Translations under genes and position numbers: made by a program | Part shown: in pieces, positions 1 through 55,308 of the stretch | How positions within the stretch are numbered: position 1 is the first letter of the stretch | Layout: each line of letters starts with the position of its first letter | NCBI GenBank assembly: GCA_001938485.1 | Contig: MQRK01178631.1 | Span: 6,518 to 62,396, forward strand | From: Girardia tigrina | Lineage: Eukaryota | Direction of reading: 5' to 3' | Length of the DNA stretch: 55,879 nucleotides | Notes under the pieces: model-generated | What the model was told of the DNA's origin: nothing | The model's input: the letters and a program-made list of their open reading frames with translations, nothing else | Databases searched by the model: none

Positions 1-69
1 TCATTCGTAAGAGTAGCTTCTGCCATGTCTACCAGCAAATATAAAATTATGTAATTATAACACACAAAA

Positions 70-955
70 AGATATGGTGTCTATATTACGTGTTCTCAAA
101 TAGCTGCCGCACCCTGTATGTATCCGTGCATTGTCCTGGATAAGGAAATGGGGTCTCACAGGCATTTTTTCGGATAATTCATCGATAAACACATGGTACT
201 TGATATTATCCAAACTGCCCCTGGTCCTTCTTTGTCTGTGGCCATCACCACCGACATATTATTCCCCCTATTTGTAGGTAACACCGATATTCACAGGTTC
301 TCCTCTTTTAGACCGCCCTGTTGTCCTTCTCGTCCAAAGGTTGAAACCGATTTCATTAATGTAGACACATTGATTAATCCGCCAATCTTCTTTCATAAAT
401 CGCCAGGCATATTGAAATCTGATTTCCTTTACCCGATCAGAGTGATTTCTTGTACTGAGCCTCTGACTTTTTTATTGTGATTAACTAGCCATTCAGGAAT
501 CTGGATATTGTAGCTTGTGATACATTGATTCCTTGATTTTCTTCTAGAAATCTCTTCATTTCGGACAGTGTTGATTTGGAGTTGTCCTCAATGAATTATA
601 TTAACAGTTCGCCCACTTATTTTATGATTATTGGCTTCATGTAGCCTCCCCAGTTTCCAAATGATATGAGACCATACATTCTATTCTTATAAACTATTGT
701 TTTGGCCGCCGATTCGGAGATGTTTAGTTGTCTGGCCAGGTGAAGTAATCCTCGCCCATATTATATGCTCTAATGAGCCTTTCTTTATCGATTTCTGCAA
801 TTCTAAATGCCCATAATTATTCGTAGTTAAAATTAAATTAAAATTGCGATTTTCTTGTTTCCTTTTCTCATTATCATCCGTCATGCTAAAAATGCAAATT
901 AATAATAAAAACGAAAGGTATGAAATAACAACCTCGTGTAAGTGTTGCTCGCACT
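70..955 (-). mobile_element. Degraded IS630/Tc1-like (DDE_3-type) DNA transposon; its terminus is interrupted by the LINE at 964
   Basis: Minus-strand frames read CVYINEIGFNLWTRRTTGRSKRGEP (first catalytic D motif, degenerate) and QDNARIH (second D), with frameshifts. The probable terminus continues after the LINE as GGGAATA at 3744-3750. Confidence 0.7.
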
Positions 956-963
956 ACTAATTG

Positions 964-3735
964 TTCAATTTTCAGGTACCGATTGGAAGTTTACCAATCA
1001 AAAGATCTGTGATGTTGTATGAGGAGCAAGCACAAGATCAAAGCGAACTCCCCCGAATCAAAAGTGGCTACATGGTCACCTAGAGGAGTTAAAGATACAT
1101 ATTGGAGAAAAATGGGCGAGGCAAACTGAGTTTGTGAGGAATAGAAACTACGACACTTTTTCCAGGTGGAAATCCAGCAGAATACTTCTCCAGAAGAACA
1201 TCAGAAGATGGAAACGTCAAAGAGTCGAGGCTCTAGGCCAACAAATCGAGAAGATACTAAACAATGACGGAGAAGGAAAACTGAAGGAGCTCACTACGGA
1301 ACTACGTATCCTCTGTAAATCTCAATCGAAGGAGAACACTCTGTGTACTACGTCGAACCCTATTGGGAACAAGGAGCTGACCAACCACTTCAATAATCTT
1401 TTTAGGGCCCCATTAGAGCAGAAGGAACGGATTAATATCACTGGAGACACTCTAAATCTCGATGATTTGGATTCTCCTCCGACGAGAGAAGAAATAACTC
1501 AGGCAATGAAGCAGTTGAAGAGTGGTACAGCCGCGGGATCTGATGGATTGATCCCTGACATCTATAAGTGGGGGGGTGTGTGAAAATACTAACCCTGCTG
1601 GAGGAGTGCTTTAGGAACATATGGAACGGATTAGAGGCATTCCCATCTAGTTGGAGAGAGGTCAAAGTGGTGCTTCTTTTCAAAGGGAAAGGCTCTCGAA
1701 AAGATCCAAATAACTACCGAGGCATTTTTCTTTTAGATGTAGGAGGAAAGATTCTAGCCAGAATCATCCCGAACCGAATCACTCCGATCACCGAAACGAT
1801 ACTGGACGAGTGGCAGTATGGATTCCGGCCGGGAAGAGGAACTCAGTTGGCTATAATTTTCTTTAGGAAATTGCAGGAGGAAGCGCGATACAAGAACATT
1901 AATATGTATGTCATCTTTATCGACTCGAAGAAGGCATTCGACAGTGTCCCCTGGAGTCTCTTCTATGGAGCTGTTTAAAGAGACTTGGGATAAGGGGGAG
2001 AATGTTAGAGATCATCAAAACTTTCTATGAGGGATTCGAAGGTTCTATAGGTGATGAAACCTTCAACATAGATAAAGGAGTGCGTCAAGGTTGTGTTTTT
2101 GGGCCGCTCCTGTTCAATATTGTATTCGACACGGTTGTGAAAAGAGCAATATTGAACGGTCTCTCTGGAGGAGTGATGATGAAAAATGAAGACGGAAGCT
2201 TCCTTGAGATCAACAGACTAGCATATGCTGACAATCTCTGCTTCATCGACACGGACTGGAACAACCTGATAAATAATTTGAACATTTTAAATGCATCCTT
2301 TTTAGATTTAGGTCTCAAAATTAACATCGGTAAAACCAAAGTTTTGAACCTAAACGGAGATGCTCGGATCATTACTGCTGGGCACCAGCTTGAGGCCGGT
2401 ATTGAGTGGGTCTCTAGCTTTTGTTACCTAGGATCCACGATCTCTTCAACAGGAAATGTGGACGCGGAAGTGAAAGAAAGAATCAAGAAAGGAGCCCAGA
2501 AGATCCGGGATCTGAGACCAGTGCTGAAGAACTCCAAACTGAGTATGAGGAATAAGAAGAAAGTAATCAACGCATGCATATTCTCCGTAGTCTACTACGG
2601 CTGTGAAAGCTGGAGAACTGCTGACATGAACATTAAGAAATTACATGCCCTTCATAACCCATGCACGCGCATAGTTAGGAAGAAACACAAAATTGAAAAG
2701 ATCCGTATGGACATCCTGGACATTGGACTCCCACATCCCATGGATATTATCGAGAGTAAACGGCTTACTTTCCACAATAAGACAGAAACAAAAACTTCAG
2801 AGGAGTACAAGACAATCAAACGAATCTGGAAGGGAGAAATACAAATGTGGAAGAAGATCAGTGGGAGGAAGAAGCAATCAATTTCGGAATGTCTTCGAGT
2901 GGACATACAGTGGCTATTTAGGGATGATGCGGTGTATGGAGATTTCATTAACCGCATCAATCACAGAGATCCTACTGTATCGAGGGAAACATACATAAAC
3001 TCCTTAATTCGATCAGTAAGACTCAATAGGACAAGAACAACTGTACCGAAGCTGATCAACGAGAGAGACAAACGTCACCAATGTCCAGTAAAAAGATGCT
3101 ACAAGGAGTTTGCTGAAAAGAAGGAACTGAATAGACACATGAAAATGGACCATGCGGTGTCCACTTCCGCTAATCCTGATCAGCTCAATGAGATACAACA
3201 ACAGCAATTGTCATTCCCATGTACACTATGCCAAAAGTCGTACAAAACGAAGGGGTGGTTGACCAGGCATCTCTACCGGGATCATAAATTGGAGGAGACC
3301 GAAAAAATTGGAGAACCGACAATGATACCAGCGCAAACCAGTACAACAACAGAAGAAAGAGTCGTAGAAAACCTCAACATTCCAGGCAACCAGATTCAAT
3401 CTGTGACGGACTAAATCGACTATCTCGACGGCGGTGGAAGAAAAGATCGGTACTGAAGAAACACATCTAACTTTTTAGATCTAACTGCAAGGGTGGAGTT
3501 CAGATGTCCCTTTCGTGGATGTACGAAATCCACGAATACAGACAAAGGTATGCAGAACCATGGCTATACAACCCATGTGTGATCGTTTCTCACAGGGAAG
3601 CCGAAAAGATCTCGGAGACAGAAACTATCCGATCCAGTAGGAGGCCTATCGGGGGGCTGCTAGTGATTCTTTAGTTTGGGTGGACCTACTAAAGAGCCTA
3701 GAGGCTCAATACCATTCGAAAGAGATGGGAGGCCC
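964..3735 (+). mobile_element. 5'-truncated RTE-like non-LTR retrotransposon (LINE) with RT and three C-terminal C2H2 fingers; copy 1
   Basis: ORF pieces 1134-1583, 1568-1978 and 2002-3414 join by frameshifts into one RT: PPTREEI..K.G.AAGSDG, NYRGI, QYGFRPGR, FIDSKKAFDSV, GVRQGCVFGPLLFN, LAYADN (YADD mutated), GLKINIGKTK, YLGS. Fingers: CPVKRC..HMKMDH, CTLC..HLYRDH, CPFRGC..HGYTTH. The ancestral ORF ends DPVGGLSGGC* at 3663. An 8-bp TSD ACTAATTG lies at 956-963 and 3736-3743. Confidence 0.93.
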
Positions 3736-4453
3736 ACTAATTGGGGAATATTCAAAATTTTCCATTTTTTTATTAAAAAATATTTTTTATTAAGTGCTCT
3801 ATTTTTTTATTAAATGAACTTAAAATAGGTGTGTATTATCTTGTGTATGTTTGTATTTTGTGTGTGTTTGGCGTGTGTGTGGTGTATGTATGGGTGAGAA
3901 AATATTTATCATATATTATTTTTTATTAACTGTAAACATACGTTATTAAAGTGTGTTTTCATTTAATTTTCTACCTTCTCATTGTATATTTAATTTTAGA
4001 TTTGGATTTTATTTATGGATTTTGTAAAATACTGTCCAATATTTGTTATTAACTGAAAGCCACAGTATATTGACAACGGAACTGATTAACTAAACACCTT
4101 CATTTTATCTTTCTGTTAAATAGTTATAGTTTAATATAATTGTATTAAACAATTGCATATTTCTTTTTATTTATATTGGTTCTGGATTCGAAAAAATTAT
4201 AAAATAAATAAAAAACTGTAGATGTAAAATTAAAAATAAAAATGTTTATTTATATTACGAAAAAGGAAATTATATTTTGTGAAAAACATTCATTTTCGGA
4301 TTGTTTAAACGCTTCGAAATAATCTAACATTATTGTTGGTGTTTATATGTGACTTTATAAATTTGAGGTGATTTGTAAAGAAAAATAAAAGTTGTATATG
4401 ACTGGTGTTTTTCTTTTCAATTTTATCAGTTGGCTAATTTCGCTAAAAATTTC

Positions 4454-5274
4454 TGTTGTGTGCCACCACAGTCCCGTTTTTTTATTATTTGTTGAACAAG
4501 AAAATTTAGAAGCCATGTAATTATGTTTGTGTTTATTTTAGTTATATTCGTGTTCATTTTTTATACATCGCCGTCGCAAGAGAGGACAAGTTTTACCAGA
4601 TGCCTAACCACGCAAAAACTTTCCTCCCAGAGAGTCTGTACACAACTAAATTCCTCTGGCTCAAGGACTACACATCCAACGGGTTGAAACTACCCTACAC
4701 CGGACCTAATAAAATCATTGAACTTTACCCCAGCAACCCGAAAATCATCAAGGACGGCAAAACTATCACAGTCCACCTCAATAACACCAAGCCCGCCTTC
4801 GTCGTGGACGACACCACCATCCCGGACAGCAATAACATGACCAGTTTCCTCTCTGACATGCTCGAGATGACCGTCACCGGTAAACCGCTCATTACCACCA
4901 ATCCAACTCCGTGCGAAGGAGCCAGCGGAAATACTGCAACTATTTCCACGACACCGCACGTCGAAGACAACAGTGATCAAACATCACCCGTTGACATTGT
5001 CGTTACTAAGCAACGCAACTCTCACATTAGACCTGCCAGATTCACAAGTTTGGTACCCATGCAAACCCCAACGGGCATCACCGGACTCCGCAGGCTCGAA
5101 CAATAACCTTCCGCGTTTCCCTTCCGGCGTGTCTCGTGTCTTTCGTTCGGGGGAGTTGTATTGTGTGCCATCACATTCCCGTATTTTTTAATTATTTGTT
5201 GAACAAGAAAATTTAGAAGTCATGTAATTATGCTTGTGTTTATTTTAGTTATATTTGTGTTCATTTTTTTATAC
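4454..5274 (+). mobile_element. Miniature, internally deleted Gypsy-like LTR element with two ~115-bp LTRs
   Basis: Direct repeats at 4454-4567 (TG...ACA) and ~5159-5274. A polypurine tract GGGGGAG precedes the second repeat. Internal ORF 4600-5106 carries an integrase C-terminal GPY/F-like motif (LPYTGPNKII...GKTITVHLNNTKPAF). Confidence 0.75.
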
Positions 5275-15538: not shown

Positions 15539-18500
15539 ATGTCTGATAATCGTTATTATGATGAAGTCGGAAATCGGAAACTGACAACAAACAATCGAAA
15601 AACTTCAAAGTAAATCGAATATTTTTTGACGGGTTTTAGATTTTTATCGCTATTTCATCAGCTATCAGCAAATCGCTAATCGATCCTCATCGTTATATTC
15701 GGAGATCATGAAAAACGTCAATCGATCTCCGAATTCTCAATCGGGATCGAATTATCGACCGGAATCATCGGTGTCGATGGAGTTCCTCGACATCCCGCTT
15801 CCCAGAGATTCGCCGGACGCGAAAATCGCGGCGAAAAACGGTCGAAAACGCCCCTACAAACCGTCCAATCGAATCGACGACGACAAATCGATCAATTCCA
15901 AGAAGAAACCGATCGTCAGTAATGATAATGTGCCGGTGGTCGGTGGGGCGGCGACTCCGGTCGTCGGCCGGGTCGAGAACGCGATTCGGCTGCCGAGTAT
16001 CTGCGGAACGCGCTCGAAAAATCGATTCGGATCGACGTGGGGCGAGCGGTCGGTGAAGTCATTCAAAATCCTGGCGGAGGTGGGCGAGGGCACGTACGGC
16101 CACGTGTTCAAGGCCGTCGAGAGGCGGACGGGCGCCATGAGAGCTCTGAAGAAGATCCGATTGGAGAACGAGAGGGAAGGGTTCCCGATCACGACCGTGC
16201 GCGAGATCAAGATTCTCCAGCAACTGGCGCATCCGAATATCGTGAGGTTGAGTGAAGTCGTGACCGATTGTGATTTGCGGGCCGGTGTCAACAACGACAA
16301 TGGCTTCTATCTCGTGTTCGAGTACATGGACCACGATTTGTTCGGCATTCTCGACTCGGGCATCTCCTTGTCCGATATGCAGGTGGCGTCCATTATGAAG
16401 CAGATCATCGACGGGCTGTGTTATTGTCACAAGAGAATGTTTCTGCATCGCGACATCAAGTGCTCGAATATTCTCGTTAATAATCGGTAATTTTTTGGTT
16501 TATTTATTGATTATTTTAAAGGGAATATTATCATTATGATATATCACAGAGGCGTTTTTGATTTTAATTGTCAATTGTGCCATTGGACGTTTAAATTTAG
16601 GACTGTATTTTGGTACTTTCACGCGCGTGTTAGATATTCGTTTTTGCACATTATCTTCATTTAAGTGACTCAAATGTCTCTCTTGTTTCGGCTTAATTAC
16701 ACATTTGATACTGCTATTTTTAATAATTTCTTATATTTTAAAAAAATATCGATTTTTTTTAAATTATCAAAATTGAATAATAAATAAATTTTATTAAGAG
16801 AAAAAATATTTTAAAATTATCAATTGTTATATAACATAATATTTAAAAATTCCAAAAATATATTTCAGAAATAAATTAAAATATATTATTTAAAAATTAT
16901 CAAATTTTTACTGTAAGAAAATAATAATTTATTAAATTTTTTTAAATTTAAAAAATAGCATTATTTAAATAAAGACTTATAAAACATTATCTTCGTATAA
17001 TTTTTTAAATTGTCTCTGTTCTTTCAATCAATATAAAACATTTGATTCTGTTATTTTTTAATTAATTTAAAAAATATTTAATAAATTATTTTAATTAATT
17101 TATTAAAAATGTTTTATAATTTGGAAATAAAATATCGATTTTTTAAATTATCAAAATTGAATAATAAATAAATTTTATTAAGAGAAAATTGATTTAATTC
17201 CGAGAAAAAATATTTTAAAATTATCAAATGTTATATAACATAATATTTAAAAATTCCAAAAACATATTTCAGAAATAAATTAAAATATATTATTTAAAAA
17301 TTATCAAATTTTTACTGTAAGAAAATAATAATTTATTAATTTTTTTTAAATTTAAAAAATAGCATTATTTAAATAAAGACTTATAAAACATTATCTTCGT
17401 ATAATTTTTTAAATTGTCTCTGTTCTTTCAATCAATATAAAACATTTGATTCTGTTATTNNNNNNNNNNNNNNNNNNNNNNNNNNNNNNNNNNNNNNNNN
17501 NNNNNNNNNTTATCAAATGTTATATAACATAATATTTAAAAATTCCAAAAACATATTTCAGAAATAAATTAAAATATATTATTTAAAAATTATCAAATTT
17601 TTACTGTAAGAAAATAATAATTTATTAAATTTTTATAAATTTTTTTTATTATATTTTAAAATTATCTAATGTTATATAACATAATATTTAAAAATTCCAA
17701 AAATATATTTCAGAAATAAATTAAAATATATTATTTAAAAATATTTTTAATTAAAAATTATTAAAAACGTTTTATAATTTGGAAATAAATAAAACATAAT
17801 ATGAATAAACTTTTAAATATTCTTGCTGGTTTTTTTTTCAGTTAATATATGATAATTTAATTATATTTATATTAATTTAAATTATTCGATTTTGAGTATT
17901 TAGAAAAATCGATATTTTATTTTTAAAAGTATAAAAAAGCTTGTATAAAAGTGTGTAAAAATATTTGAAAAATCCTAAAAAAACATTTTGAATTTAATTA
18001 AAATAATTAATACTCTCGAACAAAAAGAATTCTTAGAAACACATTAAAATAATTTATTGAATTATTTAAAAAATTATCAAATTTCATTTTTGGTACCGTA
18101 GCCTTTGGGCCGTGGGTGCACTCAATTATGCTTGGGTTTTGAATATGCATTTGAGAGTCTCAGTAGGCGAGGAACCTGGTGGCGCCTATCTTCTCTTCAG
18201 GTATGGATGGCCGTTGGTTCCAAGGAGCTCATCCGCCCTTTGCTAGGTTTTCTTTTTCATCCTCCTGGTGTCCACACACCTCTTCACCCAAATTGCTCTG
18301 GTTGAGGCAGCCGGTTTAGTCGCCAACCATTCAAATTTTTACTGTAAGAAAATATTTTTTTAAATAATTTATTAACGTTTTTAAATTTAAAAAATAGCAG
18401 ATTTAAATAGACATAGAACACTATCTTCGTATAATTTGTTAAATTGACTCTTCTTTCGATCAATATAAAAATTTGATTCTGTTTTTTTAATTAATTTTAA

Positions 18501-31172: not shown

Positions 31173-32944
31173 AATGTAATGAAAAAAATAACTCTGATTT
31201 GAAATATATTATCTTTAATTTGTCTTTGTTTTCATTTTTATTGTTTTGACCAAATAAATTGCTTTTACAAATTGATTTGGCATAATTGTACTCCATTGGT
31301 TATTTGTTTTTATATTTTGGTAATTATATATATATAATACTAAAAAATGTTAATATAAGAAAAAAAGCATTTATTTTAATAGGTTGTCATTGACAACCTT
31401 CCGAGAAGTTAGTGACGTTTTTATTAATTGTAATTTTATTAACTTATTATAGTGATTTCACACTATTTTCCTATTCAGTCTCAAAATTTCCTGAATTAAG
31501 TTATAAGAAAAATAAGTAATTCAAGATTAATTATTTAATTAATTTTAATTTATCGGTTAAATTAAACTATAAAATTATAGTTTAAATTTTTTGTTTTCGA
31601 AAGTATCTCTTTGAGGTGATAGTATACGCCGTGAAACGTATATACCTATATGTTCAAACGTAGAGTTTTTTAGATTTGCGAAACATATTGAAATATTTTT
31701 CTGTTTTTGTTTCGTAAATTTATTGTCAACTCTGAATATAATAAAACTATTGATGTTGCTAAAATGATCGAATGCTTTTTTATTTTAAATATTAATGTTC
31801 AAACATTTATACCAGTCACATTATAGACTCAATATTATAAAATATATATTTTAAAAATAATTGAAGTAATTTATATTTTCGAAAATAATACTTTGCATAT
31901 CTTTGAGCTTTCCTGACAACAATATTATGAAAACTACATTGGACAGTGATCTTATCAATCGTTGGTACGTTAGTTTATCCTCCAAATTGTACTATTTTCG
32001 ACAATTTATTATTAATTTGTGGTTCCTGTTGTCATTTATCTATGAAATTGGTCGACTCTTAAAATAAAACCCTAGCAACAATTTGGTACTTGAAAAATCA
32101 ATCTGCACCGTGAGTCAAAACAAATGTTGGATGAAAACACAACGTATCATCATTGAAACAACTCGAAGACTCGTTAAAACACCAAAAAAAAATATTGCTA
32201 TTCTTTCCGTTTAATAAAATTTTTGAAATTGTATAAAGATTGCTATAATTATTAAAATTCAAAACATTATTTTTTCCATTTAATTTATTTAACCAAAACT
32301 AAACAATTTAGATTTTTTTAATAATTGTAATGTTAGCCATGTAATATATTAATATAATATAATAATGATACTATTTAATTAAAATTTTTTATATTTGTAA
32401 TTTCAAAATTTCTTTAGTTTAACACAGACTAATTGTTTTTTTTAGATTTAGTCGAAACTACTTTTTTATTCTCTCAATAAACGAAATGCCTTGAAAAAAT
32501 TCAATTTTAAGCGAAAAATTATTAGATTTATAATGATACAACATGTGTAATAATTTTTTTCACTATTCACAATCTCGCAAAAAACATTTTCCAAACAATT
32601 TTTAAGCTCGAATTTTATCTCTAAAAATACCGACCCAAAAATTTTCAATTTATATTATTAATTTCTAGAAAAAATCTTCCATTATATTTCCATTTCTAAA
32701 ACGAAAATTTTTTTCCAAACAAAAATTCACAACTAATTGAAAATTATTGCATATGTTTGTTTCTTTTAATAATCATAATTAAACTAATAAGAGACGCATA
32801 ATCTATTTAAAATCGGTTTCATTTTTTCTCGTAATTTTAGATTACAAACGCATGATTTCGAAATCGATTGTCTTTTTTTCCAAACAGAAAATGAATTTCA
32901 TTGTAAAATAAACGCCGCTAGATTATTGGGAAAATAATTTAGCA

Positions 32945-33475
32945 ATGGACAATCATGCTTCAGTTCATTCGTTAGACACAAACGATTTGTTAATGATGCG
33001 ATCTCACCCTAATTGGAGTCCATCGAATGGAATTAGTAAAATCAACCTGAAAATCGAAAAATTGTCGTTGCCATCGTTTCCGCCGACTCAAGATTACATA
33101 AATACGAACACAAATTCGATCGGTCACGCTAATTTGGATAGCGACACTCGCCAGTCGATTAATTCCATGGAGAAAGTCAATTCGAGCAACTGCAAAGAGT
33201 TCTATAAGTGTCAATTGTGTCAGGAATCGTTCGTCACCAAACAGGCTCTCAAGCACCACAAAGACAGCAATCACAACGAGCGGAAAACATTTCGCTGTAC
33301 GTTTAGCAATTGTCTCCGAGCGTTTACGTCGGCCAATTATCTGAAGAATCACGTCGATATCGAACACACGGACTCCATGGATCACAGAATTCCGTGTCCA
33401 AAGAAAGGATGCGGATTGATTTTTCCGAATAATTATCGTTTAAAACGACATATTCGACAGGATCATAAACGTTAG
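32945..33475 (+). CDS. C2H2 zinc-finger protein (3 fingers)
   Basis: Intact 176-aa ORF with CQLC..HKDSNH, CTFSNC..HVDIEH and CPKKGC..HIRQDH. Its composition resembles the CDK exons. Extra exons cannot be excluded. Confidence 0.85.
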   Translation: MDNHASVHSLDTNDLLMMRSHPNWSPSNGISKINLKIEKLSLPSFPPTQDYINTNTNSIGHANLDSDTRQSINSMEKVNSSNCKEFYKCQLCQESFVTKQALKHHKDSNHNERKTFRCTFSNCLRAFTSANYLKNHVDIEHTDSMDHRIPCPKKGCGLIFPNNYRLKRHIRQDHKR

Positions 33476-33844: not shown

Positions 33845-34700
33845 CAATTCCACTGTCTTATATATAGCAAATTGATGATTATGCAAACATCTTGCGTAAT
33901 AACTAATTAAATATTTTCAACAAATTGGAAGAGAGACTTGTTTGTACATTAATGGACGGATAATCAATAATGCCTCACAAGTAACTCTCCCAATAATTTT
34001 TAAAATTACTGCACAATATTTTAAAATTAGTTGTTTTCACCTCCGACTTACAACCCTTCATGTGTCCAGCAATATTACTCCCATTACCCAATCGTCCATG
34101 CTCCTGAATCCGTTTGCGGAGATGACGAGACGTCTCTCCGATGTATGTAGCGTTGTACCCATTACACAAAAATTGATAAACCAGATTGGAACGTAAACTC
34201 AAAGGAGAACGAGATTTATTGCTGAATATACTTTGAATTTTGTAAGATTTAGAAATGATTTTTAAATTCAAATTTTTACTATCGATTGATTTTAAAATAG
34301 ACGATTTAAATTTTTTGTAACCTTCTGAATGAGGAACGATTAGCGTATATCCAATATTAGAATTATCATTAGATAATTTATCGGGTTTTAATTCGCCTTT
34401 ACCCTCATGATCTTTATTCATTAATTTATCTATCGTCTCATTAGTTAGTTTCTCTAAAAATGATTTCGAATATCCATTTTTCTGCAATAGTTCTGTTAGT
34501 TTATCTATGCTTGCATTTTAAAATATTGTGCAGTAATTTTAAAAAAATATTGGGAAAGAGTTACTTGTGAAGCATTATTGATTATCCGTTCATTAATGTC
34601 CAAACAAGTCTCTCTTCCAATTTGTTGAAAATATTTAATTAGTTATTACGCAAGATGTTTACATAATCATCAATTTGTTATATATGAGACAGCGAAATTG

Positions 34701-34989: not shown

Positions 34990-36950
34990 TGATTTTAAAA
35001 GGTGTATTAATTTTAAATGTACAATTAAAAGAAGAAAATACTGAAGAATACAAACAAATCATCAAAATAGCTTATTCCGAAGGATTTAGAGCTTTTAAGA
35101 AGAGTATTTGTAGAAGAGTAGTGTCAACGTAGTCTCTGTCACATCTGTGAGATATTATAGAATTAAATTTAAAGTAATTAAATAAAATATTGCACAATCA
35201 ACAAATTTAGAATATTTCTAAATTTGTATTATGTAACTATTACGGGGTCGAGAGCTGAGTTAACCTTTGACTCTCCATTTATTCTGTATATAACTGATGT
35301 ATGTGTGTTTGTGATTTAGTGTATTTAAATATATTTTAGTCCAGATCTTTTGTCTTCTAACAACATCCAAAGTTCAAAGTTTCCTCTCAAATAAATCGAA
35401 AACAGTTTGTAGATTGCAAACTAATCTGATATATAAATTTAATTGTCACGGGTGTCAAAATTCGTACATTGTAGAGGATTAAGAAAGGGAGAGCAAGACT
35501 CTGAGAAATCGCTCCAGTAGTCAAGAGTAATCTACTACCAATCCGAAGCAAGAAAGCTATCATGTACTATGGTTCAGAAAACTGGCGAACTAACGAAACT
35601 CTGATAAAGAAATTAGAAGCATTATACAATATGTGCACGAGAACAGCACTAGGCATCGACAAAAGAGAGAAAGTCAGGATGGAGACAATTAGTATTGAAC
35701 TTAGTCACCCAATGGACATCGTTGCCAGAAGACGGCTCCTGTTCCACGTTCCTCTGGCAACCGTAGAAGGTCAGGAATGCGTACAAAGAATACTCTCAGG
35801 TACAATAGAGAGCGACTCAAAGATCGGAGGACGGAAAAAGCAAAAACTATCGGAATGCCTGCGATTCAATGTGAATTGGTTGTTCGGAGAAACCGCCAGT
35901 CTCGACAGTGTTATTACTCTGCTGCAGAGTGGTGCTCAACTCCGAATGCGAGATAGACTCGATTATCTAATTCGCTATGCGAACACAGTAGGAAAAAAAA
36001 ACCACAGACTTGCCAAAGCTAATCAATCCAAGGATGAATACAGTTCGTTGCTATCTCGAGAACTGTAACAAAGGATTTGCAGAGAAAAAAGGACTGAATC
36101 GTCATATTCGTGAAGATCACCAGAAAATTATACCGGACGCAGAAAAGAAAGCATATCAGTGCCCATATTGCTGAAAAAGCTACTACGCTCAGGGGTGGTT
36201 AATAAGCAATTATTGGAAAGATCATTCATCAGCAAATATTCCAGAAGAAACAGTTACCAAGACTAAAAAGAAACCTCGCAAACCACAGAAAGACAGCAAC
36301 ATCAGAGAAAATGAAGACTTACCAACAAGTACCAGAACATTTCAGGTACCAACCGTCGGTGCGAGCACATCAACTGTTCCCCAAGAAGCGATCTTCTCAG
36401 AAGTACTGAGTTTCCGTCTAACAGACCAAACGGCAAAAGGAAACTTCAGATGTCCTTTCGCTGGCTGCTCCAAGTCCACGGGATCGGCCAAAGGAATGTT
36501 AAACCATGGAACATCCGACCATGGTTGGTCGTTTCACACTTGAGGACAGAGGAGAACTTGTAAGCGGTAAGCTGACGACCCCGTAGGAGGCCTATCGGGG
36601 TACTGCTAGATTATTTAGTGGGTGGACCCTCTAAAGAGCCTACGCCTTAATACCATTCGAAAGAGATGGGAGGCCCACATTGGAGAGACAATTCATCATC
36701 TCAAAACCCGGATTAGTGAGCACTCGCAAATGAGTCGATCGAGTAAGGTTCTTGATCATTGGTTATGCTGTAATGATAGAACCTCATCCATTTCAAAAGA
36801 TGAGTTTTCTGTTCTACAAAAAGGATTCGATTCACATTACGAACGCCAGTTTTGAGAATCTCTACTAATAAGACACTACAACCCATCAATCAACATTCAG
36901 AATGAGTAAAGTAAGGTTATTTCAATACTTAAAAATTTTAATTAAAATAT
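34990..36950 (+). mobile_element. Second Penelope-like element, interrupted by an LTR-like insert (~35110-35364) and by LINE copy 2
   Basis: IKIAYSEGFRAFKKSI / SKVQSFLSNKS..TNLIYKFNCHGCQNSYI|GETIHHLKTRISEH...ESLLIRHYNPSINIQ reassembles when 35472-36682 is removed. Confidence 0.85.
35472..36676 (+). mobile_element. LINE copy 2 (divergent subfamily of 964-3735), 5'-truncated
   Basis: YYGSENWRT, HPMDIV..RRL.FH, GGRKKQKLSECLR, fingers ..LNRHIREDH, CPYC and CPFAGC..NHGTSDH, and the end DPVGGLSGYC*. Same 3' terminus as copy 1. TSD ACATTG at 35466-35471 and 36677-36682. Confidence 0.92.
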
Positions 36951-51500: not shown

Positions 51501-52958
51501 GAGGTTATTATTAATCATTCAATTATTATAAAAATAATTCATCTTTTAACAATGTTAAATATTAAATTTATTAATGCTGTTATTTATGTTATGAAATACA
51601 AAACTTATATTAAATTTTGATTTATTGAATTTTGTAAAATTTATTTTGTAGATACATCAAAACCAAAGGTTTTCAATTTGTTAAACTTGAGTTCGTTTAC
51701 AAATTGTCAATTTTATGTTTTACTTGGAAAGTGTTATATAAATATTTACCTTTGAAAGAGATCAAGAAAGATTAGGTAAAATTGATGATCATTGAATCTT
51801 TCAAAATTTATAAGGATATAAAGCGTCATAATAAAGTAGAAAAATATCAATAAAGCTAATTTAATAAAATAAAAATAAGAAAAAAAATTTTATATACAAT
51901 TATTATTAAAATTATTATCATAATTAATTATTATCATAAATTATTATTAATCACCAATTCTTATAACGATCATAATCATCATTATTATTATTTTTTAATA
52001 ATTTCAATAAATTTGTATATTTTTTTAGATTTTGTTTTACAAATTTTCATTATCACTTTCCAAAAGATTAAAGACGAACAATTAAATATATTTTCGCTTC
52101 TCTTTTCATATTCTTAATTTACATAAAAACAATGTGTCTAGAGGAATCATTTCAATAATTAATAAATTAATTTTTATTTTTTTATGTAATAATTATTAAT
52201 TTTTTTCCTTTCTGTTTTTGTTTTATCAAATTTTCTATTTTTTTATTATTATTTGAAGTTAAATTAATTGGATTATTTGAATTATTTTATATTTTTTTCT
52301 TAAGTCATTGTCTATTAGTAAAGTTATGATTAAAACTTTTTCAGTTAAATAAATAGAAGAAAAAGAATAAAAAACATGTTAAATATGGTAACATTTCTGG
52401 ATGCTTTATGGAGTAAACATGAATGATAAATCTGCAATCAACAGCTCTGTCCTTTCATAAATACATTAATGTAATTTATTGAGTTATTAGAATACGCAAG
52501 GTTTCATGAAAGTTTCGTCAGCCTTGATTTTAGACAGAGATGTATCACAAATTACCATTAATGTACAATGTTCCTTGTCCAAACATTGACTTGTATCTTG
52601 TACCGAAAAAAAATATTAAACTGCTTTCTGGATACACTCTTTACTGATTTAAAACTGCCATTAATTTCCTTTGGAACCTACTTAGAATCTGACAATTTTA
52701 TAACTTCTTTTTCAGTCAAAGAAGATCTTCTTGATTAAGTAAAGTTGTAAATAATACCTTTCTTTAAATTTTAACAGAATATAGCTTATAATGTTTTAAT
52801 TTGGTACAATTTTTGTGGCAAAAAGTTTATCCTATTATAATTAAAAAAAATCAAGAGGATATTTATTAAACATTTATTCCTTAAGGAATATTGGTATAAA
52901 TTACAATAGGGTGTAAAAGTTAGTATTTCATATTGTTACCTTATCATTACTTACTCTC

Positions 52959-54166
52959 AGGAAGACACGAAAAATTGTGAACGCCTGTATATTTTCCCTA
53001 GTTTTTTTATAGATTTGAAAGTTGGAGAACCACTATGAAGAACATTAATAAACTACAGCTGCTTCACAACTTATGTACCAGATATATTTTAGATTTGGAA
53101 AAATAGAAAAAAATCCGTATGGACACTATGGACAATGGATTCTTGCTATCAATGCACATTATCGCCAGTAGACATCTGGTATTTCATTGCAAGATTGAAG
53201 CGAAAGAAAAGTTCGAATACATCAAACGAATCTGGACAGCGAAGATGTAAATGGGGAACAAGATTAATTGGAAAAAGAAACAATCCATCTCCGATTATCT
53301 CCGAGTGGATATACATTGTCTTTTCGGGTATGATGCCGTCTACGATGACTTTATGAATCACATCATACACAGAGACCCAATTGTAGATTGTGACATGTAT
53401 GTGAACTCCCTAATCAGTTTAGGCTGGGTCCATCGAACAAAAACAAATGTACCAAAACTAATCAAGCAGAGAGAAGCTTCTACAATTTTAAAAAGTGTGA
53501 TATTACAAGGAGTTTGCCGAGCGAAACGAGCTATATAAACTTTTCAGGAAAGACCATGCAGCGGCGGCCACTCCACATCCCCAAACAGAAACGATAATGA
53601 CGATAAATGCCGAAGAAGTTGCAAAAATTTTCAAATAGGTATTTGCTGTAAAATGACCTATAAAATAAAAGCGTGGCTGAAGAGACACGTCAATAAGGAT
53701 CACAAACTGGATGGGGCCGAGATTGTCGGAATCTCATCAAATCAAGCAGAGCCGATCAACCAGATCAGAAATACGATTGGGGAAGCCGATAAAATATCAA
53801 ACATATTCCAGAAACTCAAAATCATTTAGCAACGGAACCTCAGACTATCTCCACGGTGGTTGAAGAAATGATCAATGCCGAAAAAACACATCTGTTTTTT
53901 AGGATTGCAGATTTATCTCAGAGGACAGAATTTAGATGCATCTTTCGCAGCTGCATAAAGTCTACAAATACAGCCAAAGGCATACAAAACCCTGGAACTA
54001 CAATCCATGGGTAGGCGTTTCTTATAGGGAAACCGAAAAGATATCAGAAACCGAAGTAATCCGACTCCGTGTCAGGCATATCGGGGGACTGTTAGATACT
54101 CTCTAGTTTTTTGGGACACTTTAAAGAACCTTAAAGCTCAATACCATTGAAAGAGATAGTAGGCCA
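52959..54166 (+). mobile_element. LINE copy 3 (same family as 964-3735), degraded
   Basis: IVNACIFSLV, KKKQSISDYLRVDIHCLFGYDAVYDDF, VPKLI, finger remnants, SDSVSGISGDC*, and the terminus CAATACCATTGAAAGAGATAGTAGGCCAAC. Confidence 0.9.
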
Positions 54167-54175
54167 ACATAATTG

Positions 54176-55308
54176 CATAATAATTAATATTTTTAAGAAC
54201 TTTTTGATTCTCCTTGGCATTGATGAAATAAATCTTTGACACAACTCTAGTGGTTTTCAAAGCAACATATGCGATCTACGTCTACCAGTAAATGGAGAAG
54301 AGATATGATATTCAAGGTAGAAAGCTTCGTCTACATGATCTCTCATAGATTTTCTATGGAGTTAAGATCTGATGAATAACTGAGCCAATCAAGCACTGTG
54401 ATTCGGTTTGGCTGAAACCATTGAGTGACTGCTTTAACTTTATGACATGGTGCTGAATCATGCTGGAACACATTAAACTGAAGGTTATGCATCCAGACGG
54501 ACCATTTCTTCTCTAAAACAGTCTGATAATGTTGGCATCAATTATTTTATATTTGGAAAAATACTAAAGATTACCCTATCACCAAAGACAAAGCACCCCT
54601 TTACTATAATTTTAAGTGAGTGTTTCACATTAGAAGAGTTGTATTCAGGAGGATGTAGAAAAAATCCCTGAATGTTATATCGACAGAATCCACTTTAATC
54701 TAAAAGGAACACAGATTTATAATGGTCAATTATTCAATGCTAATACGTTCGACAAAAAGCTAAACGACGTTGAGCAAAAACCTTGGCCATTAGTGGTTTA
54801 GGGTAAATAGCGCGTATTAATAGCTGCAAATCCACGTGTAACCGTCCTCTAATAGTTCGAGCGGGCACATGTACAAATTATGGAAGCTTTACCTTAACTT
54901 TGGAAGATATAACAAAATGATTTTTTTTGATCAGACGTTTTTTGATCATTCCTCATAGTAGTCTTTTGGTTGAACTTCATTGAGAATTTTGTTCACAATT
55001 GCATATGATATAGATAGCCGTCTAGCAATAACATTCTGATGGTAAACTTCTTTATTGAGTAAAATGATGGAAGTTTTCCGTTCTCCTGTGATGTCCTTTG
55101 TACGAGCCATTTGTAATGTTAAACTAAAAAGAGATTATAAATAATTAATGAATAATCAAATCATCATAAAAATAGTCAAAATTAATGAAATAATTTAAAT
55201 GAAAATAATTAATTTGAACCATTAAATTCAATTATAATGTCTTATTTTACATAAAAAATGTAATTATACCAAATTGACCAAACAATTCTAATTTTATGGC
55301 CAATACTG
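54176..55308 (-). mobile_element. Tc1-type transposon, degraded
   Basis: TIR-like end CAGTATTGGCCATAAAATTAGAAT at 55308. Motifs MARTKDITGERK, FQHDSAPCHKVK and SSMPRRI. Confidence 0.85.

Follow-up and report, generated by a model that had tools for sequence, protein, structure and literature searches.

The stretch analyzed here (the window) comprises 55,879 nucleotides (nt) of Girardia tigrina DNA (assembly GCA_001938485.1, contig MQRK01178631.1, positions 6,518 to 62,396 of the forward strand). It is AT-rich eukaryotic DNA (A 35%, T 35%) and contains three copies of one retrotransposon family lacking long terminal repeats (non-LTR), a long interspersed nuclear element (LINE), all on the plus strand (Table 1). 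Each copy is truncated at the 5' end and carries stop codons and frameshifts; the three are dead, decayed insertions. They belong to three subfamilies, because their amino-acid identities to P0031, an intact 1188-residue relative, differ widely (Table 1). Over 329 codons, copies 1 and 2 are 40% identical at the amino-acid level. The footprint is that of target-primed reverse transcription: all three truncated copies share a 3' end, and clear target-site duplications (TSDs) flank two of them.

The intact relatives are proteins of 1188 residues encoded by a single open reading frame (ORF), with an APE endonuclease, a reverse transcriptase (RT), and C-terminal C2H2 zinc fingers, of which three motifs are visible in the protein alignment. 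In relative P0026, PF03372 was found at residues 2-239 and PF00078 at residues 534-780, which places APE N-terminal to RT, and the best solved relative is LINE-1 ORF2p (E = 5e-33). No RNase H family was detected at E up to 0.1 in P0026, P0044, or P0049. The intact ORFs lie on contigs of 3889-3925 bp, which, going by length, would leave no room for an ORF1; in a distant relative (L002, see below) ~220 nt precede the ORF. The element is an APE-type non-LTR retrotransposon. Of 169 proteins, the 152 that spanned 260 residues or more of the RT query were used to build an RT tree. In it, P0031 falls into a clade of 37 rows (SH-aLRT 97), 31 of which have at least two C-terminal finger motifs, compared with 6 of the 115 others. 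Because the tree includes no named clade reference, the label RTE-like rests on architecture and on motifs regarded as typical of RTE. The clade (proteins P0065-P0148) consists of APE-RT proteins, almost all unnamed, and no description of it was found. Malik and Eickbush are said to have listed a short 3' untranslated region (UTR) as an RTE feature in 1998; it is present here (69-74 nt), whereas the 3' microsatellite-like tail is absent from copies 1 and 2.

Table 1. Element copies, junctions, and 3'-terminal features (positions in the window)
Feature	Position	Strand	Description
Copy 1	963..3737	+	starts at about residue 289 of the 1188-residue P0031; stops and frameshifts; 90% amino-acid identity to P0031
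Copy 2	35472..36678	+	other subfamily; 5'-truncated near P0031 residue 793; 46% amino-acid identity to P0031
Copy 3	52936..54168	+	a further subfamily, decayed to a greater degree; identity to P0031 53% (amino acids); 5' boundary +/- ~10 nt
Copy 1 TSD, 5' copy	956..963	+	ACTAATTG, 8 bp, after T; last G may double as the element's first base
Copy 1 TSD, 3' copy	3736..3743	+	ACTAATTG; opens with AC, which is also the conserved final dinucleotide of the element
Copy 2 TSD, 5' copy	35466..35471	+	ACATTG, 6 bp, after T
Copy 2 TSD, 3' copy	36677..36682	+	ACATTG; overlaps terminal AC
Copy 3 TSD, possible, degenerate	52929..52935	+	CATATTG versus CATAATTG at 54168-54175; only 4 nt exact; picked by eye
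Last 11 codons (SDPVGGLSGGC) and stop TAG, copy 1	3628..3663	+	synonymous sites conserved
3' UTR, copy 1	3664-3737	+	74 nt; 63/74 columns identical to copy 2 (85%)
3' UTR, copy 2	36610-36678	+	69 nt
3' UTR, copy 3	54096-54168	+	73 nt
Identical 30-mer of copies 1 and 2	3708-3737 and 36649-36678	+	holds predicted CCAUUC-GAAA-GAGAUGG hairpin (3712-3728) and terminal AGGCCCAC
Candidate stem (C)TTTAG / CTAAA(G)	3669..3694	+	loop GGGTGGAC; pair probability 0.96 in copy 1 (within a longer helix), 0.37 in copy 2

All three copies stop at the same terminal base. A first-pass annotation, made from the letters of the window, had stated that copies 1 and 2 share their extreme 3' sequence exactly in spite of diverged proteins, that copy 3 is a degenerate version of it, and that the 3' UTR is only ~73 nt long. 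Each of these statements proved correct: the last 30 nt of copies 1 and 2 are identical, 26 of the last 30 columns match in copy 3, and the UTR lengths are those in Table 1. In the window the 30-mer has only these two matches at up to three mismatches, and none of 100 shuffles reached two. Likewise, a sequence-only model built from the three ends matched those three alone in the window and nothing in seven other loci. The UTR of copy 3 is ~74% and 69% identical to the other two (the slice took in one stop-codon base). Between copies 1 and 2, identity declines going upstream from the end (30, 24, 23, 20, and 16 per 30 columns).

Conservation reaches into the ORF. Third codon positions of copies 1 and 2 are 33% identical over the 329 upstream codons and identical at 9 of 11 (82%) in the last 11 codons (Fisher p = 0.0016); four-fold sites agree at 14 of 38 upstream and at 6 of 7 in this terminal segment (p = 0.023). 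Upstream of these codons, synonymous sites are saturated. Because the terminal synonymous sites and the UTR are kept despite this saturation, constraint at the nucleotide level on the last ~110 nt is supported. The ORF closes with the peptide PVGGLSG in copy 2 and also in P0001, P0002, P0003, and P0219, which represent four intact subfamilies with identities of 50-68%. The frameshifted P0042, from a further subfamily, reads on into the UTR as ...FGWT..., and TTTGGGTGGAC of copy 1 encodes the same peptide in that frame. By these comparisons the constrained module begins near position 3630, about where it had been placed originally, and is confined to one branch of the family.

A recent exchange of 3' ends, by template switching or recombination among co-resident subfamilies, would make the identity a matter of recent common ancestry and not of selection. 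The climb in identity toward the end fits such an event, as does the location of all 11 UTR differences upstream of the last 30 nt. However, differences and indels interleave with conserved blocks instead of stopping at a single breakpoint, and PVGGLSG occurs in five lineages with differing residues on both sides, which would require several swaps. We give this explanation little credence.

The junctions add evidence of a different kind. Perfect TSDs, which had gone unmentioned in the first-pass annotation, flank copy 1 (8 of 8 bases) and copy 2 (6 of 6 bases); in random 20-56 nt stretches of the window such matches arise with a chance of 0.002-0.008 and 0.03-0.08, respectively. The 5' TSD of each lies at most one base from the start of homology to intact protein. 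Both clear TSDs start with an A preceded by T (T|A at two of two clear sites). Because the TSDs directly abut the end, copies 1 and 2 have no tail between element and duplication. The asserted lack of poly(A) also held: the longest A run within 20 nt past the end is 4, 2, and 2 nt for copies 1, 2, and 3, and a scan of the final 150 nt of each copy with a generally known list of poly(A)-signal hexamers detected neither AATAAA nor ATTAAA, and one weak variant, ACTAAA, in copy 1. Copy 3 makes the asserted lack of a repeat tail less certain, because its flank (54168-54185) reads CATAATTG and then CATAATAATT, with CATAAT twice, 8 nt apart. Such recurrence is seen at 3% of window positions, and the flank may be due to chance or to a slippage repeat. 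The bases AC are shared by the TSD start and the element end in every copy; the element's last bases may be GGCCC, GGCCCA, or GGCCCAC. Past the TSD, the six flanks have no match to one another within the window, and insertion into a repeated target was rejected.

Could these ends reflect ordinary relatedness plus constraint on the C-terminal peptide, with the common end being simply where the alignment stops and short tails having eroded? Every copy is dead and decayed, and the flank of copy 3 is AT-rich with a short repeat, as this account would have it. Protein constraint, however, cannot preserve synonymous sites and the UTR, and copy 1, at ~10% protein divergence from intact relatives, has a perfect TSD directly at its end. 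The account is already largely refuted by the TSD and conservation data, and we consider it very improbable.

The 3' flanks read AC-TAATTG, AC-ATTG, and AC-ATAATTG, with ATTG within 3 nt of the end in all three. Three random flanks would share a 4-mer starting in the first four positions in 0.5% of cases (0.1% if G or C is required), and TAC-W(0-3)-ATTG occurs at 31 of 109,939 positions. The motif was noticed post hoc at three sites; it hints at a target preference or at a tail hidden inside the duplication. For a hidden tail, a short AC(W)nATTG would follow GGCCC in the RNA, either as an encoded mini-tail or as donor flank in read-through. By annealing along the entire future TSD, this tail would be lost from view in the duplication, and new insertion sites would come to look like earlier ones. 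Annealing of flank to target has been proposed for Drosophila R1 (PMC2718515), and the doubled CATAAT of the copy 3 flank is in line with it. Yet a spacer of 0 to 3 nt is poor for annealing, the flanks would look no different if the endonuclease had a preference at both nicks, and a memory of the flank should drift over the divergence between these lineages. We regard a hidden tail as unlikely.

We also analyzed the RNA structure of the ends. From the set of stems proposed originally, CCAUU/GAUGG was the sole hairpin to predominate in each of the two better-preserved copies (mean pair probabilities of 0.67 and 0.74), and the UUUAG/CUAAA stem is plausible as a prediction (Table 1). The GAGCC/GGCTC hairpin failed, with pair probability <0.12 in the copy 1 ensemble and three of its five pairs broken in one other copy. 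Only in copy 2 does the ORF hairpin dominate (0.97-0.98); in copy 1, the GGCCU of the ORF prefers the terminal AGGCC (0.89), and the terminal AGGC has three alternative pairing partners. An A-U/U-A exchange at the outer pair of the ORF hairpin, obtained from back-translated P0003 and P0042, was dropped, three of six lineages being mismatched there. The alternative pairing once suggested between the extreme end AGGCCCAC and the upstream GTGGACCT was rejected as a conserved feature (GTGG/CCAC 0.18 in copy 2, <0.12 in copy 1). Single-sequence folding gave z values of -1.16 in a first fold; pieces of copies 1 and 2 scored -1.45, -1.22, -1.46, -0.92, and -0.77, whereas copy 3 scored +1.49 and +0.31. 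Consensus folding gave -0.63 for copies 1 and 2, and -2.31 for all three (10 of 500 shuffles).

The first-pass annotation had taken the module to define the RNA 3' end precisely without polyadenylation. Self-cleavage, or a cut by a host RNase after ...CCCAC, would then yield a defined, non-polyadenylated template. The fixed end and missing poly(A) signal suit this idea, and so do the tRNA-like size of the UTR, its several possible stems, and a multi-branch fold of copy 1 that can be closed by the ORF GGCCU and the terminal AGGCC with CAC left free. Copy 2, though, does not favor the closing stem, and a search of Rfam (E up to 10), one of the checks proposed with the annotation, gave two chance-level matches for copy 1 and none for copy 2, and so no credible match to a known ribozyme. 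Neither ARAGORN nor Rfam returned a tRNA-like element, and no hammerhead, HDV (hepatitis delta virus), twister, or pistol core, as these motifs are generally known, was seen by eye. LINE ribozymes that have been described sit at the 5' end (PMC8501958, PMC6765202). A self-made RNA end strikes us as quite improbable. In any case, a tail-less DNA junction does not reveal where the RNA stops, because a longer RNA can be reverse transcribed from an internal start; this is reported for SART1Bm (PMC7265360) and has been proposed for R1 (PMC2718515).

With modest confidence, we favor the view that the last ~110 nt (11 codons plus UTR) act in cis as the recognition element through which a stringent RTE-like LINE primes at a fixed base. 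The APE endonuclease would nick at a T|A step of the bottom strand, corresponding to T|AC in the top strand, and the module would be bound by the element protein, through RT and probably also the C-terminal zinc fingers. The CCAUUC-GAAA-GAGAUGG hairpin would be the likeliest shared recognition element. The ...CCCAC of the RNA, 9 nt past this hairpin, could then pair through its AC with the exposed GT-3'OH, so that the hairpin sets the priming distance and the AC supplies a 2-nt microhomology. Reverse transcription would start at AC whatever the continuation of the RNA, read-through or poly(A), and hence no tail would be copied. A second nick 6-8 nt downstream would produce the TSD. The module would thus take over the role of the microsatellite tail in described RTE families. 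Stringent LINEs are known to require their 3' ends for retrotransposition (PMC3747384). This precedent, together with the nucleotide-level constraint and the fixed tail-less junction, speaks for the original suggestion that the end serves RT template recognition; the particular stems, as a set, did not hold up.

Several observations weigh against this reading. None of the single-sequence folds of the ends beats shuffles, so the description of the end as structured found no support there. Covariation is also at shuffle level: in the 28-pair model of the first-pass annotation, 89% of cells are paired and two of the 28 pairs change on both sides, both by way of the decayed copy 3, and 46 of 500 shuffles of these three sequences do as well. 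An alternative terminal GCCU/AGGC helix scores alike (91% paired, 49 of 500 shuffles). PVGGLSG is absent from subfamilies at 36-41% identity (P0004, P0005, and P0065), and the three-end model has no match in L002, so the module is not family-wide. Only three junctions are available, one of them degenerate, and no run of three T near -10, the upstream part of the Tn-TA insertion signature of RTE, was seen by eye at either clear site. The shared AC could be due in full to a preference of the endonuclease, in which case GGCCC would be the end of the element.

A broader proposal, which we put forward tentatively and judge unlikely in full, is that this is an undescribed multi-zinc-finger RTE-like lineage that has dropped the tail, whose ~110-nt, ORF-overlapping module positions RT, and that is semi-specific for T|AC-W(0-3)-ATTG, possibly through annealing of the RNA continuation along the future TSD. 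If true, it would be a dispersed LINE with exact 3' junctions whose donor flank steers target choice.

The closest comparison is with RTE elements (Bov-B, plant RTE-1, schistosome SR3, and Perere-3), which have a single ORF with APE followed by RT, as appears to be the case here. RTE 3' ends of ~100 nt with a hairpin are conserved and common to short interspersed elements (PMC3747384, PMC6007223); the hairpin of the present family is a predicted one. Dispersed insertion and short TSDs are further likenesses: Bov-B TSDs start with A after T (PMC13295347), and the 3' end of animal RTE overlaps the target by one or two bases (PMC6007223). A 5' HDV-like ribozyme may be a shared trait too, represented here by a sub-gathering match in the relative L002. 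The tail sets the families apart, since all 18 RTE LINE families in Table 2 of PMC6007223 (which omits some families of its Table 1) and all seven plant RTE families of PMC3747384 end in microsatellites, and Perere-3 ends in GTAA repeats (PMC8501958), whereas the copies here show none. With 6-8 bp, the TSDs fall at the lower limit of the 7-15 bp range given in PMC6007223, or just under it. The three C-terminal C2H2 fingers are another difference from RTE, as is the lack of a visible upstream T stretch.

Other LINEs share single traits with the family. R1 elements insert site-specifically into 28S rDNA with 14-bp TSDs and have two ORFs, R1Bm is not known to have a poly(A) tail, the stem-loops of UnaL2 and ZfL2 are followed by a microsatellite tail, and Ingi carries C-terminal C2H2 fingers. 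Unlike R1, the present family appears to have one ORF and has flanks that are unrelated past the TSD; like R1Bm and Drosophila R1, it is of APE type with an invariant 3' junction, and flank annealing is a shared proposal (PMC2718515). The stringent CR1/L2-type stem-loops of UnaL2 and ZfL2, likened here by description, are similar in being short conserved 3' elements thought to be read by RT (PMC3747384). Tail-less families are also listed in the L1 clade (5 of 15 families from green algae and 9 of 233 from flowering plants; PMC3747384, Table 3). Tailless retropseudogenes integrate without a tail as well, but they are passenger RNAs with variable ends, in contrast to the one fixed end of an autonomous element here. 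Ingi and Vingi are likewise dispersed and have a single ORF, as the present family seems to, and L1Tc has a 5' HDV-like ribozyme (PMC6765202); Ingi differs in its RNase H domain, which is missing from P0026. The literature search found no account of a tail-less multi-finger RTE-like family or of its end; it left Repbase and subscription papers uncovered, and the supplements of PMC6007223 and PMC13295347 may list RTE families without tails. The available excerpts of PMC5035012 and PMC1291365 contain nothing on tails.

As proposed, the end works like a stringent RTE 3' end but without the RTE tail feature, and each component has a precedent. What the microsatellite tail does in LINE priming is described as unsettled (PMC13295347). 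A dispersed, tail-less, fixed-end element would separate RNA recognition from tail-to-target annealing, in a form that can be tested with the ~110-nt cis element and the intact P0031 ORF. RTE-type elements are under development as gene-insertion tools (PMC13708176), which would benefit from exact 3' junctions and a short cis element.

To find further copies, we searched several sequence collections. Viral contigs gave no match to a 21-nt pattern, a gapped pattern, P0001, or alignment A3, and plasmids gave none. The sole metagenome locus among 66 candidates (L001) was dropped as a 16-residue zinc-finger match without RT. From prokaryote genome contigs, one of 119 candidates was kept: L002, a relative at 30% identity, whose contig stops 15 nt past the stop codon, in ...GAAC, so that its 3' end cannot be called. 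No second copy was found in its genome, where the five other matches are RT fragments at 23-28% identity. The ESM Atlas returned only generic zinc-finger clusters. Among 24 public sequencing runs listed, 20 hold part of positions 2900-3760, only one of them at half or more of its words; this has no bearing on junctions, expression, or host range.

L002 itself (1-3725) is a eukaryote-type LINE contig within a bacterial metagenome-assembled genome, with its protein annotated as bacterial, and is probably contamination; P0079 bears a similar bacterial label. Upstream of the L002 ORF, at 93-171 on the plus strand, lies an HDV-like ribozyme match (drz-agam-1, E = 0.0025, 26.7 bits versus a gathering threshold of 37), in which a 7-bp P1 (CCAGTCA/TGACTGG) can be drawn by eye. 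HDV-like ribozymes are thought to release RTE elements from host transcripts, and the position of the match would fit release from host co-transcripts (PMC6765202).

Elsewhere in the window, a GC-rich ORF of 198 codons (4510-5106, plus strand) without a Pfam match stands amid AT-rich DNA. A GIY-YIG domain fragment (PF01541, E = 4e-5) at 33975-34517 on the minus strand probably derives from a Penelope-like element, and an ORF of 187 codons at 32912-33475 on the plus strand, which encodes C2H2 zinc fingers but has no neighboring RT, is probably a host gene exon. At 15630-16490 (plus strand) lies a CDK12/13-like kinase exon; because its best named matches, many of them from flatworms, reach only 60-69%, the DNA likely belongs to a fast-evolving animal lineage.

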